Shown here in pieces: positions 1,509 through 54,766 of a DNA stretch of 64,000 nt (position 1 is its first letter; each line of letters starts with the position of its first letter). The stretch spans positions 1 to 64,000 of the forward strand of contig JAHQWK010000011.1 of the NCBI GenBank assembly GCA_029856145.1, given 5' to 3'. The translations under genes were made by a program, and so were the position numbers. The stretch comes from Promethearchaeia archaeon (GTDB lineage: Archaea > Asgardarchaeota > Lokiarchaeia > Sigyniarchaeales > SOKP01). The notes below the pieces were generated by a model. The model made no database searches and was not told the origin of the DNA. It saw only the letters and a program-made list of their open reading frames with translations.

Positions 1509-1646
1509 TCAATCGCCTTCCAAGAATTTCTGATAATTCAGTTCGCATATTTTTTGATAGATAATATCTAAGTTTTCTCCAGTCTTAACAGATATTTCAT
1601 AATTCTTAGATAGATTATATTTCTTCACTAAAGCAATTCCTTGATC
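1509..1646 (-). pseudogene. C-terminal remnant of a Rab-like small GTPase
   Basis: Manual translation DQGIALVKKYNLSKNYEISVKTGENLDIIYQKICELNYQKFLEGD* contains a G5-like EISVKTGEN motif; TGA immediately upstream, no start. Confidence 0.75.
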
Positions 1647-1988: not shown

Positions 1989-2132
1989 TCTTTTAGAGAA
2001 AAACCTTATGAAGAAAAACAAAAAATTTTATCAAAGCAATTTAAATGGCTAGGACCAACAGGAGCTCATTTCTTTCTATGGTCAGTTGGAGAAAATGCCC
2101 CACCGTGTGAACAAGTTTTAAATCATAGATGA
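1989..2132 (+). pseudogene. 3' remnant of a DNA-3-methyladenine glycosylase I (Tag)-like gene
   Basis: SFREKPYEEKQKILSKQFKWLGPTGAHFFLWSVGENAPP* resembles the Tag C-terminal F.f.Gp...y.Fl.avG motif; stop upstream, no start. Confidence 0.6.
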
Positions 2133-2336: not shown

Positions 2337-3347
2337 TTAACTAAAAATTGAATCACTATATTTTTGGAGAATCTCCCATTTTCCTTCTTTTCTAATTGTG
2401 GCTACTTGATGGGTTTTCATAACTCCTAAAATCTCATCAATACCACATTTTTCAGCAGCATAAGTACATAAGACAATCATCCGATAGTTTCCTACAACAT
2501 TATTTATTTCTTCTTCATACTCAGAAAAATCTTTCCAGTCTTTTCTTTCAATCCATGCCGTATTGCCGGTTACTCTGAGACCATTAAAACCTTGGGATAT
2601 TGCATAATTATATTTTTGAACCCACCCATCGAGAACTCTTTGGAAGTTGAATTCTCCATCTTTAAGATACCATTCTGTATAAGGAAAGATTTCTATTTGC
2701 CCTTTTTTCAAGAATTCATTAAAATTTTTTATTTCAGATTTTAACTTCTCTTTAGCTTCTTCCTCAGAAAGATCTTCTGAAGTAACCCAGACACAAAACT
2801 GATTGTTTTCTAACCCTTTTTTGATATAGGGTATTAATATATCCATGAGATCTTCTTTTTTTTGGTAAAAATAACACATATGCGTCCCCCATGGAAAATT
2901 GTAATTTAAGTCAATATCTAATTGTATCCCCTTTATATCCATTATAGCGTGATAATATTTAAGTAAAATTCCTTTTATTTCAAGAAATCTAGCAGTACTA
3001 TCCTCAGAAGAATTATAGAGCACCTTATATAAATTCTTAATATTTTTAAGTTCTTCTTTAAATTCTTTTAAAATCGATTGGAAAATTTTTGGAGATATCT
3101 GTTCATTGATAATTACCACAGAAATCATAAGTTCTTCATATTCCGTCCTCTCCGTTTTACTTGGTACTGTAAATTTTAAATTAGCTGTTTTAAAAGTTTC
3201 ATAGTCATAAATAAAGAAATTCTTTTCATCTAAATTTAGATGCTTAGGAATAGTTTTGAGGTCATTAAGTATAAAGTCTTCTGGAATTTTCAATACTTCT
3301 ATAGATCCCTTAATAATATTAAAATGACTAAGGATTAATACCCTCAA
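2337..3347 (-). CDS. Longin/uDENN-like N-terminal domain fused to a MEDS sensor domain
   Basis: C-terminal half has MEDS hallmarks (GTHMCYFY, GLENNQFCVWV, GLRVTGNTAW, LCTY); N-terminus resembles that of 31724..32524. Confidence 0.8.
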   Translation of the reverse strand: MRVLILSHFNIIKGSIEVLKIPEDFILNDLKTIPKHLNLDEKNFFIYDYETFKTANLKFTVPSKTERTEYEELMISVVIINEQISPKIFQSILKEFKEELKNIKNLYKVLYNSSEDSTARFLEIKGILLKYYHAIMDIKGIQLDIDLNYNFPWGTHMCYFYQKKEDLMDILIPYIKKGLENNQFCVWVTSEDLSEEEAKEKLKSEIKNFNEFLKKGQIEIFPYTEWYLKDGEFNFQRVLDGWVQKYNYAISQGFNGLRVTGNTAWIERKDWKDFSEYEEEINNVVGNYRMIVLCTYAAEKCGIDEILGVMKTHQVATIRKEGKWEILQKYSDSIFS

Positions 3348-3410
3348 ATTTAATCAGTCTTTTTGATAATTTCTAACATAATCTTAGAATTGTTGAATAA
3401 ATAGTTTTTT

Positions 3411-3881
3411 TTGTATTTAACAATTTATTTTTATTCGGCAATGCGTAAATTAGAAAGAATAATAATTTTAAAATTTAAAGTTTATCCTAATTATATTCAT
3501 AAATCTTATCTTAAGATTATACTTAAGCTTAAAATTAGGAGGGAATATCCTCTTCTAATAAAGGAATATTCATTTAAATTTAATATTCTCAAAATTGGAG
3601 TTGAGAAAGCAGAAGAAAAAGGAGTTGAAGCAATTAAATATTTGAAAAAACAGATGCTTCAACACATCAATAATACCGTGTATCAAAACCCCGAAGACCG
3701 AATTAGAGACGAACAATTAGCTTACAGGTTTTATGATCTTAAAAATCTAAAAAAAGAAATGAACTACTATAAAAATAAACTTATTGGAGTGCAAAACTGG
3801 CTTGAAAGCCTAAAAGAAGAACATATTTCGGCTGAAAGAGAAATCAATCAACTTAAAACAAAAATTGAGAGACTTAAATGA
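3411..3881 (+). CDS. Hypothetical coiled-coil protein (start uncertain, possibly a fragment)
   Basis: ORF; C-terminal heptad pattern; N-terminal part is AT-rich and low complexity. Confidence 0.4.
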   Translation: MYLTIYFYSAMRKLERIIILKFKVYPNYIHKSYLKIILKLKIRREYPLLIKEYSFKFNILKIGVEKAEEKGVEAIKYLKKQMLQHINNTVYQNPEDRIRDEQLAYRFYDLKNLKKEMNYYKNKLIGVQNWLESLKEEHISAEREINQLKTKIERLK

Positions 3882-17880: not shown

Positions 17881-18095
17881 ATTATACAAACTTTATTGTT
17901 TTTTTTTTAATATTGTAAATAGAAATAAAGAATGATAACATTAGCTTTACTAATTAATTTAGCTATAGTTGCTTGGCTTAAATTAAGAAATTTTAGTCAA
18001 ACATCATTGAATGTGAAATATATATAGTTAGATTTTTTTGTCAATATATGGGAGAGCAAAAATATCAAATGTAAATGTTCCTTTATAGTGAAAAG

Positions 18096-18617
18096 ATGTC
18101 AAGCTATAAATTAAAAGTATTACTAACAGGCGCTGCAACAGTAGATAAGACCAGTTTAATTCAGAGATTCATTAAAAATAGGTTTCAAGCAAATTACAAG
18201 CTAACTGTAGGGGTTGACATTCTCACGAAAGATGTTGAATTTAGACAAGGAGAAACTGCTACTTTAAGTATTTGGGATATAGGAGACCAACAACGTTTTA
18301 AGTTTATTCGCAGTACATTTTATAAAGGATCGGCTGGAGCTTTATTAGTTTTTGATTTAACACGAGAACAGACATACACTGAAATAAGAAAATGGTTTAC
18401 AGAAATAAAAAAATTTACAGGTTCTATTCCTTTTGTTTTAATCGGAAATAATATTCATTTACATAAATTGATAGATAAAGCAATTATCCAAAAAGAGGCT
18501 CGTGAATTTGCATGAAATGAGGGAGGGACATATATTGAAACATCTCCAACCAGTATTGATGTTATTGAAGGGGAGGTTCGTAAGTTTACTCGTAGAATTA
18601 TAGAATCAAGAACATAA
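18096..18617 (+). pseudogene. Degenerate Rab-like GTPase with in-frame TGA at 18513-18515
   Basis: G1 GAATVDKT, G3 WDIGD, G4 GNNIH; frame continues past TGA as NEGGTYIETSPTSIDVIEGEVRKFTRRIIESRT*. Confidence 0.8.
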
Positions 18618-28704: not shown

Positions 28705-29100
28705 GTGATGGTTGAAGAAAATAATACTTTAGAGAAGTTGGAAACTATCTTAAAAAGATTATTATCAAATAATCGTGATATAACAGTTGCGGTAATCACA
28801 TCAATGGAGGGCCTCCCTATTCTCTCAATATTACCCCGAGGATATAATGAAACTAGAATTTCTGCCATGGTTGCTACATTGCTTTCTATATCCGAAAGGA
28901 CTGTCATAGATATGGAAATTGGCGAATTCCAACAGATATATATCAAAGGACTTGATGGATATTTATTAGTTTTTGATGCTGAGCCAGCTGTGTTGGCAGT
29001 TTCAACTAGGGTAAAAGTGAAATTGGGGCTAGTTTATTTTGAGTGTGAGCGTGTTTCGCAAGAAATATCAAAGATTTTGAAAGAGAGAAATAAAGACTGA
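28705..29100 (+). CDS. Roadblock/LC7 domain protein
   Basis: VITSMEGLPILS, RISAMVATLLS, QIYIKGLDGY, KLGLV. Confidence 0.93.
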   Translation: MMVEENNTLEKLETILKRLLSNNRDITVAVITSMEGLPILSILPRGYNETRISAMVATLLSISERTVIDMEIGEFQQIYIKGLDGYLLVFDAEPAVLAVSTRVKVKLGLVYFECERVSQEISKILKERNKD

Positions 29101-31723: not shown

Positions 31724-32524
31724 ATGAAGTTGATCGTTATATTATCATATTTTCATACTAAAATAGGGCCATCAATATTTTATTCATTTCCGAAGAAGCA
31801 GTTGGATAAAGAAATATCAACTAGAATATATGATATTATGGATCACCCTAAGAAGGAAGAATTCTTGACTCAATCTTTCGAAAATTTAAAGTTATTAAAC
31901 TATTATTTTCAGATTGACTCAGATTGGGCAAGAGGTTCCAATGAAATGTTGATGCTCTCACTAATGACTACTCCGCAAATTTCTCCTGAAATTGAAGAGA
32001 CTATTTCTAATATGTGTAAGAAATTTTCAGAAAAGATGCAATCAAATGAGGATATTTTTAAAGGGTTCCACATAAAGGAATTAAACAATTATGATGATAG
32101 TGATAAAGAACGTATTAGAAAAAACAAAATCTTAATTAAAAGTTGGGTACAGGAGTTATATTGGGAAATTTTAGAAGTTATAAGAAAAATATCGGAAGAA
32201 GAGAAAATAACATTGCTATTAGATGACCGGTATATATTTGAATCCTTAGAAAAAATGTCAAGAGAAGTGAAGAAAATCAGTAAAGAGATAAATTTAGGAG
32301 AGGATTCCCTAAAATCGAACTCTGATATCAGAGATGCTATTTCAAATTTAAACAATATACTTGATGATTTATATGAAGGGTACATAGAAAAAATGACAGA
32401 ACTTAACATCGAGGAAGAAAATGGCTTATTTTCTCCAGGAGAAGAATTGGAAACAGATGTTCAAAATAGCAAAAAAAAGTTACTTCGAGCTTTAATAGGA
32501 GAATTTAATGGAAAAGAAGAATAA
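31724..32524 (+). CDS. Longin/uDENN-like domain protein with acidic helical tail
   Basis: LSYFHTKIGPSIFYSFP (F...GP start typical of uDENN/NPR2-type longins), ARG..E.LMLS. Confidence 0.65.
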   Translation: MKLIVILSYFHTKIGPSIFYSFPKKQLDKEISTRIYDIMDHPKKEEFLTQSFENLKLLNYYFQIDSDWARGSNEMLMLSLMTTPQISPEIEETISNMCKKFSEKMQSNEDIFKGFHIKELNNYDDSDKERIRKNKILIKSWVQELYWEILEVIRKISEEEKITLLLDDRYIFESLEKMSREVKKISKEINLGEDSLKSNSDIRDAISNLNNILDDLYEGYIEKMTELNIEEENGLFSPGEELETDVQNSKKKLLRALIGEFNGKEE

Positions 32525-53521: not shown

Positions 53522-54766
53522 ATGAATGTTAGAGACATCAAAGGGCGTCCAAAATTCGAATCAGGTCAATTTTTAGGTTATTTTTTATGGAAGCAATCGG
53601 ATGGGTTTCATCTAAGATGGACCACCAAAAAAGGAAAAAACCACAACTTTCAAGGAAAGATAGCCTATCAAACTAAACTAAGAATTACCAGAATAGCTGT
53701 ACCCAAAACTGGGCTTAAAATATATGAAACTGAAGAAAAAATGATTCAATGGAATATTCCAAAAGAAGGAAAAGCAAATGGAATAGATTTCATTACCCCT
53801 GGAAATTTCACATTAGAATTGAGAATAGATAAAAAAAAAATTAAACCAAAAACAATATTTTTGGGACCTGAAATGAAAAATCCAGAGAGTAACCCTTTCA
53901 ATATTATTCAAATAATTGAAGAAAAAATATTAGAAAAAGAGATAAAAAGAAAATTAGAAAAAAAAATAAAAGGACCGTTAAGAGAAATCGAACCGAAAGC
54001 AATTTATGAATCTGTCTCAGAACCTGTACCGGTATACGAACCAGAACCAGTATATGAGCCAGAACCAGTATACGAACCTGAGCCAGAACCAGCACCAGTT
54101 TATGAACCTGAACCTGAACCAGTATACGAACCTGAGCCAGAGCCAGAACCAGTTTATGAACCTGAACCAATATATGAACCTGAGCCAGAGCCAGAACCAG
54201 TTTATGAACCTGAACCAGAGCCAGTATATGAACCTGAACCAGAACCAGTATATGAACCTGAGCCAGAGCCAGTATATGAACCTGAACCAGAACCAGTATA
54301 CGAACCTGAGCCAGAGCCAGTATATGAACCTGAACCTGAACCAGTATATGAACCTGAGCCAGAGCCAGTATATGAACCTGAACCTGAACCAGTATATGAA
54401 CCTGAGCCAGAGCCAGTATATGAACCTGAACCTGAACCAGTATACGAACCTGAACCAGAGCCAGTATATGAACCTGAACCTGAACCAGTATACGAACCAG
54501 AACCAGAACCAGTATATGAACCAGAACCAGAATCCGTATATAAACCTGAACCAGAACCAATATATGAACCTGAACCAGTATACGAACCAGAACCAGAACC
54601 AGAACCAGAATATGAACCAGAACCAGAACCAGAACCAGTATACGAACCAGAACCAGAGCCATTTTATGAACCTGAACCAGAATATGAATCTCTTCCAGAA
54701 CAAAAACCAGAAGAAATTAAAGACAATGAAGAAAAAAAAAGCGAAAAAAAATCTGAAGAAGAATAA
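53522..54766 (+). CDS. Protein with beta-rich N-terminal domain and long Glu-Pro-Tyr repeat tail
   Basis: Globular first ~130 aa, then about 28 (EP)nVY-type units. Confidence 0.85.
54020..54690 (+). repeat. Coding tandem repeat, mainly 24 bp unit (EPEPEPVY) with 18 and 30 bp variants
   Basis: GAACCTGA[AG]CC[AT]GA[AG]CCAGTATA[TC] repeated; variation mostly at third codon positions of the EP frame. Confidence 0.97.

Follow-up and report, generated by a model that had tools for sequence, protein, structure and literature searches.

A eukaryote-like longin domain fused to a prokaryotic sensor-type MEDS domain in Lokiarchaeia, a putative regulator of Arf-related GTPases

A Lokiarchaeial (Asgard) gene in the 64-kb window analyzed here, which is the start of a contig in a 3.55-Mb genome, encodes a fusion of a eukaryote-like longin domain of the type that switches GTPases off (NPRL2/folliculin type) with MEDS, a prokaryotic sensor-type domain. 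We favor, tentatively and as a prospect somewhat short of even, a reading in which the protein is a MEDS-gated GAP subunit that acts together with a second longin on an Arf-related or Rag-type GTPase in trans. The fusion is real but it belongs to a published class (Liu 2020; Traffic 2025), and with MEDS a promiscuous family has merely exchanged its partner once more. The gene and its two domains are as follows.

2337..3347, minus strand: longin-MEDS fusion gene, TTG start, 336 aa, stand-alone and without conserved neighbors
2937..3347, minus strand: longin of the NPRL2/FLCN/SMCR8 (GAP-type) class, residues 1-137, assigned with AlphaFold2, Foldseek, VIA and the Atlas search
2364..2912, minus strand: MEDS domain, residues about 146-328, with a KaiC/FlaH (RecA-superfamily) fold lacking Walker A

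The open reading frame and its fusion to MEDS had been described exactly by a first-pass annotation of this DNA, and the match to PF14417 spans residues 155-314 and the entire profile (positions 1-161 of 161; E 1.6e-47, 161.8 bits against a cut-off of 29.8). The annotation had also noted the lack of a kinase or HTH output, and indeed no kinase, HTH or P-loop was found in the 336-aa protein, whose chain stops about 20 residues past MEDS. The longin fold that it had proposed for the N-terminal region holds as well. An AlphaFold2 model of residues 1-137 from a 130-row alignment (pLDDT 93.4, pTM 0.88) has the b-b-a-b-b-b-a-a topology of the longin superfamily, its best Foldseek matches are the NPRL2/Npr2 chains of GATOR1 and SEA (E 1e-5), and all nine significant matches (ranks 1-9) are chains of GATOR1, SEA or folliculin complexes. 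VIA, which is independent of Foldseek, placed it next to a Lokiarchaeal longin (8yqg; Z 12.8, rmsd 3.2, 130 residues aligned), FLCN (6nzd; Z 12.7, rmsd 2.6, 132 aligned) and NPRL2 (8fw5; Z 12.0, rmsd 3.1, 131 aligned), with the longins of CPLANE, Sec22/SNARE, adaptins, TRAPP and DENND at Z 9-10.5 (DENND1A 9.2), so that both methods rank NPRL2 and FLCN ahead of the other longins as structural neighbors. The Atlas search returned Promethearchaeota clusters at TM 0.83-0.88, Asgard longin-Arf clusters at 0.78-0.83 and NPRL2 at 0.74. PDB sequence profiles touch NPRL2 weakly and in the first hairpin only (E 0.13-0.5); FliG matches in that profile search were attributed to chance, and a Pfam Folliculin_C match to the longin (E 0.01-0.06) fell below the cut-off and was set aside. 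The NPR2 Pfam family gave no match in 81 genomes, where a control was equally silent.

The GAP longins FLCN, NPRL2 and SMCR8 are marked by a Gly-Pro (GP) motif before beta2 and by an arginine finger; the GP motif is absent from the longins of DENND, TRAPP and adaptins, both features are present in some Asgard longins, and a GAP role for Asgard longins has been raised as a possibility (PMC12290439). The corresponding elements of the fusion are the following.

3303..3323, minus strand: beta1-beta2 hairpin, Phe9...Gly14-Ser15, with the family form Phe-x4-Gly-Pro and Pro changed to Ser here
3147..3149, minus strand: Arg67, candidate arginine finger in the beta4-beta5 loop

Conservation of the hairpin is nearly complete across the family (Phe9 in 124/130, Gly14 in 125/130 and Pro15 in 122/130 members), and Pro15 is present in 19 of 21 orthologs; the window's copy has Ser15 and retains Phe9 and Gly14. 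The motif aligns with FHPTLGP of NPRL2 and has the same spacing as Phe10...Pro16 of FLCN, in which the F10D exchange abolishes GAP activity (PMC9473554). The beta4-beta5 loop contains a conserved arginine, Arg67, that is kept in 122/130 family members and in all 25 orthologs, where it is the sole invariant of the eight positions of loop 63-70 (35 of 137 positions are invariant domain-wide). Phe9, Gly14 and Arg67 are retained by all orthologs even though neighboring loop residues vary, while Gly68, which follows the arginine in 118/130 members of the family, is missing in the whole MEDS clade (25/25). Asgard proteins scoring above the Pfam Folliculin cut-off have an ARG motif with which Arg67 aligns. 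By topology and such intermediates, rather than by direct residue-level alignment, Arg67 appears to be the counterpart of FLCN Arg164, which sits in a similar LARG motif.

From the hairpin, the loop Arg67 and the lack of a DENN body, we infer that the longin belongs to the GAP class and would have GAP rather than GEF activity. The annotation had called the domain uDENN/DENN-like and had proposed nucleotide-exchange assays, and this part is not supported, since no cDENN or dDENN follows the longin and the Gly-Pro hairpin with the loop arginine is the GAP-longin signature (PMC12290439). Its observation that the N-terminus parallels that of the product of 31724..32524 in the same window was borne out.

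31724..32173, plus strand: longin domain of a paralog from a different subclade; its F/GP/RG motifs are intact and a helical region follows it

The two N-termini are 27% identical over 139 aa (BLASTP, pairwise E 6e-06), phmmer recovers the pair at E 2.6e-4 among the 3910 ORFs of the genome, one family profile matches the fusion and its paralog at E 3e-38 and 7e-46, and the quoted motifs LS.F....G and N..F....S...R...E.LM.S are present. By sequence, then, the product of 31724-32524 is a homolog of the fusion's longin, without evidence of linkage. An iterated profile finds six members of this longin family in the genome, and their partners are MEDS, ArfR-longin-PAS-PAS-GAF-HATPase, PAS-GAF-PAS, a receiver with a zinc ribbon, and helical tails in two cases. 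Among 1.84 billion representatives searched, 541 relatives came up.

These relatives bear on the identity of the client. A GTPase stands directly behind the longin in 45 of 150 family representatives, and in all nine of the fused GTPases that were scored Pfam ranks Arf far above Ras. This points to Arf-related clients, with Rag-type ones possible by analogy, rather than to Rab. Longin-bearing Asgard Arfs have been reported, and the native regulators of Asgard AArf are stated to be unknown (PMC11914678). About 20 of these chains also contain a second longin, in which a Trp is invariant and mostly part of a Trp-Asp pair, like the essential W33-D34 of C9orf72; a longin-GTPase-second longin chain hence holds all parts of the C9orf72-SMCR8-ARF1 complex (PMC8213707) in one polypeptide.

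Three loci elsewhere in the genome belong beside these observations. The nearest in-genome Arf partner is found in the 1123-aa longin-ArfR-longin-PAS-PAS-GAF-HATPase protein of contig C6 (7742-11113), whose second longin has a C9orf72-like Trp-Asp and whose relatives resemble a C9orf72-SMCR8-ARF complex condensed into one chain; here, however, Phe and Gly-Pro are lost from the first longin, and no switch-II Gln is present in the GTPase (DIPGK). On contig C9 (29008-29919) a response regulator has a Trp-type longin as its output, a candidate for a partner longin that phosphorylation would control. A longin-PAS-GAF-PAS paralog on contig C2 (148922-152559) has intact F/GP/RG motifs and lies tail-to-tail with two GTPase genes; for testing GAP activity it is better suited than the MEDS fusion.

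The Rab-like target proposed in the annotation was not upheld, given the Arf-type fusions and the chance occurrence of the Rab genes in the window. The genome has 89 small-GTPase matches, dozens of them Rab-like, so that about 1.6 are expected per 64 kb and the Poisson chance of at least three is about 0.2; the window's three Rab-like genes (7501, 18075 and 29848) lie 4-27 kb from the fusion. Linkage to these genes and to the Roadblock gene at 28705 was therefore rejected, as they are distant, unconserved and expected by density. The product of one of them, 18075-18515 (plus strand), is a 146-aa Rab-like GTPase with altered P-loop and G4 motifs and without G5, and looks truncated. A DENN-like exchange factor or effector that relays a ligand signal to Rab-like GTPases, for example those of the window, could draw on the longin folds of DENND1, Mon1-Ccz1 and TRAPP (Z 9-9.6) and on the many Rab-like GTPases of the genome, but with no DENN body, a GP motif that DENND, TRAPP and adaptin longins lack (PMC12290439), Arf-type GTPases in nine of nine scored fusions, and Rab genes that are not conserved neighbors and whose number is within chance, we regard it as decidedly improbable.

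The second half of the protein has the fold of FlaH (Z 15.2) and KaiC (Z about 14). Full-length modeling relied on a shallow alignment of 25 close orthologs and left residues 1-40 under pLDDT 50, so this model was used for MEDS only. The Walker A motif GxxxxGK[ST] of active KaiC/RecA ATPases is absent from the MEDS of the window and of one ortholog (P0009). MEDS is predicted to bind a small hydrocarbon-derived ligand, and no report of a MEDS ligand was found in the literature searched. Direct ligand sensing, as the annotation had it, thus stays unproven for a domain with a KaiC/RecA fold that lacks Walker A; what stands of its wider proposal is the link between a prokaryotic input and small-GTPase control, which is plausible, whereas the DENN/exchange, Rab and ligand-sensing specifics do not. 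At 49-59% identity, the closest MEDS domains are those of Lokiarchaeial MEDS-PAS histidine kinases, which are likely the donors. MEDS has been listed as an inactivated KaiC, "MEDS (iKaiC)" (PMC5847659), and together with the fold and the lack of a reported ligand this would suit an inactive KaiC-like module for interaction or oligomerization, in place of a ligand sensor, through which the longin is clustered or a further RecA-fold protein is bound. Such a role is rather improbable: no true KaiC was found in the 97%-complete genome, whose four PF06745 matches are RadA/RadB-like, and the donor MEDS occupies the sensor position of kinases. It can, moreover, coexist with gating of a GAP by MEDS.

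The fusion is not an assembly artifact, as 26 clusters share its architecture at 66-99% identity and a constant length of 331-336 aa and intact copies are present in 10 other genomes, one genome having two. Its homologs are labeled Promethearchaeota/Lokiarchaeota, including Loki_b32. Four orthologs at 66-79% identity (P0016, P0019, P0022 and P0026) are labeled Thorarchaeota or Hodarchaeota by NCBI, which may reflect wrong binning or gene transfer from one Asgard group to another. Of 25 genomes searched within the genus, 6 have the fusion, and among 300 GTDB genomes drawn from across the phylum it turned up in one Lokiarchaeial family only; it is recent and its distribution is patchy. A quickly built tree (146 columns) unites the MEDS longins in a single clade with support 100 and a long stem of 0.97, placed weakly (support 83) among or next to longin-ArfR proteins, and MEDS starts at about residue 147-150, where sister proteins start a GTPase or PAS. 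Crude, simple Nei-Gojobori estimates from six A+T-rich genes give dN/dS values of 0.28 for MEDS and 0.42 for the longin, indicating purifying selection on both halves that is stronger on MEDS.

The surroundings of the gene are not shared. Downstream, at a distance of about 1 kb, lies a BON-domain gene, and on the other side a divergent coiled-coil ORF, and no conserved neighbors were found at the ortholog loci in ten other genomes, each of which has different ones. One upstream segment does travel with it.

3348..3510, minus strand: A+T-rich upstream region that travels with the gene, 83-90% identical over 83-212 nt at 7 other loci

This is probably the fusion gene's own promoter. The listed start of the divergent ORF (3411-3881, plus strand) overlaps this region, and translation of that ORF probably begins further in. 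On the strand of the MEDS gene, and about 700 bp downstream of it, lies a Rab-like GTPase C-terminal remnant (1509-1646, minus strand; 42% over 48 aa to C9:430021, E 8e-5), whose frame is broken upstream by stops and which is absent beside the orthologs of the MEDS gene. A 47-aa coding-like fragment at 1989-2132 (plus strand), without a Pfam match, is probably another pseudogene relic and recalls the C-terminus of DNA-3-methyladenine glycosylase I. Farther off, the product of 53522-54766 (plus strand) contains a long tandem array of an E/P/V/Y-rich peptide, across which both strands have open frames.

Patchiness within one family, variable genomic position and the longin dN/dS of 0.42 are what a nearly neutral product of domain shuffling without integrated function would leave behind. 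Its intact form and constant length across more than 25 clusters, with identities reaching as low as about 71%, the two copies in one genome, the conserved upstream region and dN/dS values well below 1 in both halves make this explanation very improbable.

In the mechanism that we favor, a GAP-class longin of the large longin-ArfR/longin-PAS family was joined to the MEDS of a MEDS-PAS histidine kinase, MEDS taking the slot where sister proteins carry an Arf-related GTPase or PAS, and the product, made recently in one Lokiarchaeial family, would be a stand-alone cytoplasmic regulator. Its longin would pair with a second longin, for instance the Trp-Asp type of this genome, into the two-longin cradle of C9orf72-SMCR8, FLCN-FNIP and GATOR1; Arg67, supplied in trans, would make an Arf-related or Rag-like GTPase hydrolyze GTP faster, and MEDS would gate the longin by binding a small molecule or by a change of oligomeric state. 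The architecture, both folds, the conserved motifs, the tie of the family to Arf-like GTPases, the origin and the distribution rest on the data, while GAP activity, dimer partner, client GTPase and MEDS input are proposals. This GAP reading draws on a fold closest to NPRL2/FLCN, motifs that are near-invariant in 130 members, Arf-type fusions in 45 of 150 representatives, purifying selection on both halves and the lack of another output domain. It is weakened by the long stem, by the loss of Gly68 and, in this copy, of Pro15 (replaced by Ser), by a C6 Arf without the switch-II Gln, by a conserved neighborhood that holds neither a GTPase nor a partner longin, and by the absence of the fusion from most of the genus genomes searched. 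A narrower form, a minimal two-domain GAP whose MEDS binds a C1 or hydrocarbon-derived metabolite that a syntrophic partner might supply, and directly controls an SMCR8/FLCN-type arginine finger acting on an Arf-related GTPase, is unlikely.

Some of the same observations suit a non-catalytic role, in which the longin does no more than dimerize with its paralogs, so that longin-PAS-GAF-(pseudo)kinase proteins receive the input of MEDS in trans, or acts as a pseudo-GAP that titrates active subunits, the output being two-component-like signaling or inhibition and not catalysis. The long stem, the loss of Gly68 in the clade and of Pro15 in this copy, new invariant residues on helix 2 (S85-Q90) and the HATPase domain that ends 16 of the 150 family representatives are consistent with this, and Liu et al. 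(bioRxiv 10.1101/2020.10.19.343400) read such longins as regulators of two-component systems. On the other hand, Arg67, Phe9 and Gly14 persist in all orthologs amid varying loop neighbors, while seemingly non-catalytic paralogs (the C6 clade) drop Phe, Gly and sometimes Arg. We consider this docking role a credible alternative, on balance doubtful.

If the GAP mechanism holds, the nutrient-responsive GAPs GATOR1, folliculin and C9orf72-SMCR8 have archaeal counterparts that are wired directly to prokaryotic sensor domains, and a small soluble protein becomes available for two questions: which GAPs serve Asgard Arf-related GTPases natively (PMC11914678), and what MEDS binds. The metabolite-gated form, if true, would be a one-step link from sensor to GTPase without a phosphorelay, and the smallest construct for a first native Asgard Arf GAP and a first MEDS ligand. 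Being lineage-restricted, with no linked GTPase gene and with partly eroded motifs, the fusion is a weaker test case than its paralogs; the longin-ArfR-longin fusions, by contrast, carry the client in the same chain.

Among known systems, FLCN, NPRL2 and SMCR8 (6nzd, 7t3b, 6lt0; PMC8213707, PMC9473554) and the Asgard GP-motif relatives (PMC12290439) share with the fusion the longin fold, Phe-x4-Gly-(Pro) and the beta4-beta5 Arg. Unlike the three eukaryotic proteins, to which it is 11-18% identical, the fusion has no DENN or NPRL2 C-terminal domains, it has Ser for Pro in this copy and a clade-wide loss of the Gly after Arg, and its GAP activity is putative. DENND1 Rab GEFs (3tw8, 6ekk) also contain a longin fold in their uDENN module (Z 9.2), but the fusion lacks cDENN/dDENN, has GAP-type motifs and comes from a family tied to Arf-type GTPases. 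With PF14417 proteins, namely DcmR-type regulators and the MEDS-PAS kinases of methanogens and Lokiarchaeia, it shares a full-length MEDS of RecA/KaiC fold without a P-loop; unlike in these, MEDS is C-terminal and is joined to a longin, not to HisKA/HATPase, REC, HTH or anti-sigma domains. MEDS is not named as a longin partner in the texts of PMC12290439 and PMC11914678, nor does the word occur in the main text of Liu et al. The closest precedent is nevertheless the class in Fig. 5c of that preprint, in which an N-terminal NPRL2-like longin is combined with a prokaryotic signaling domain. The fusion, an NPRL2-like longin with a two-component-signaling domain in an Asgard genome, has this composition, and differs from the fusions depicted there in having an input domain only, without kinase, receiver or GTPase. 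The class as presented there is expanded and shuffled in Lokiarchaeia, and the six paralogs of the present genome fit that picture.
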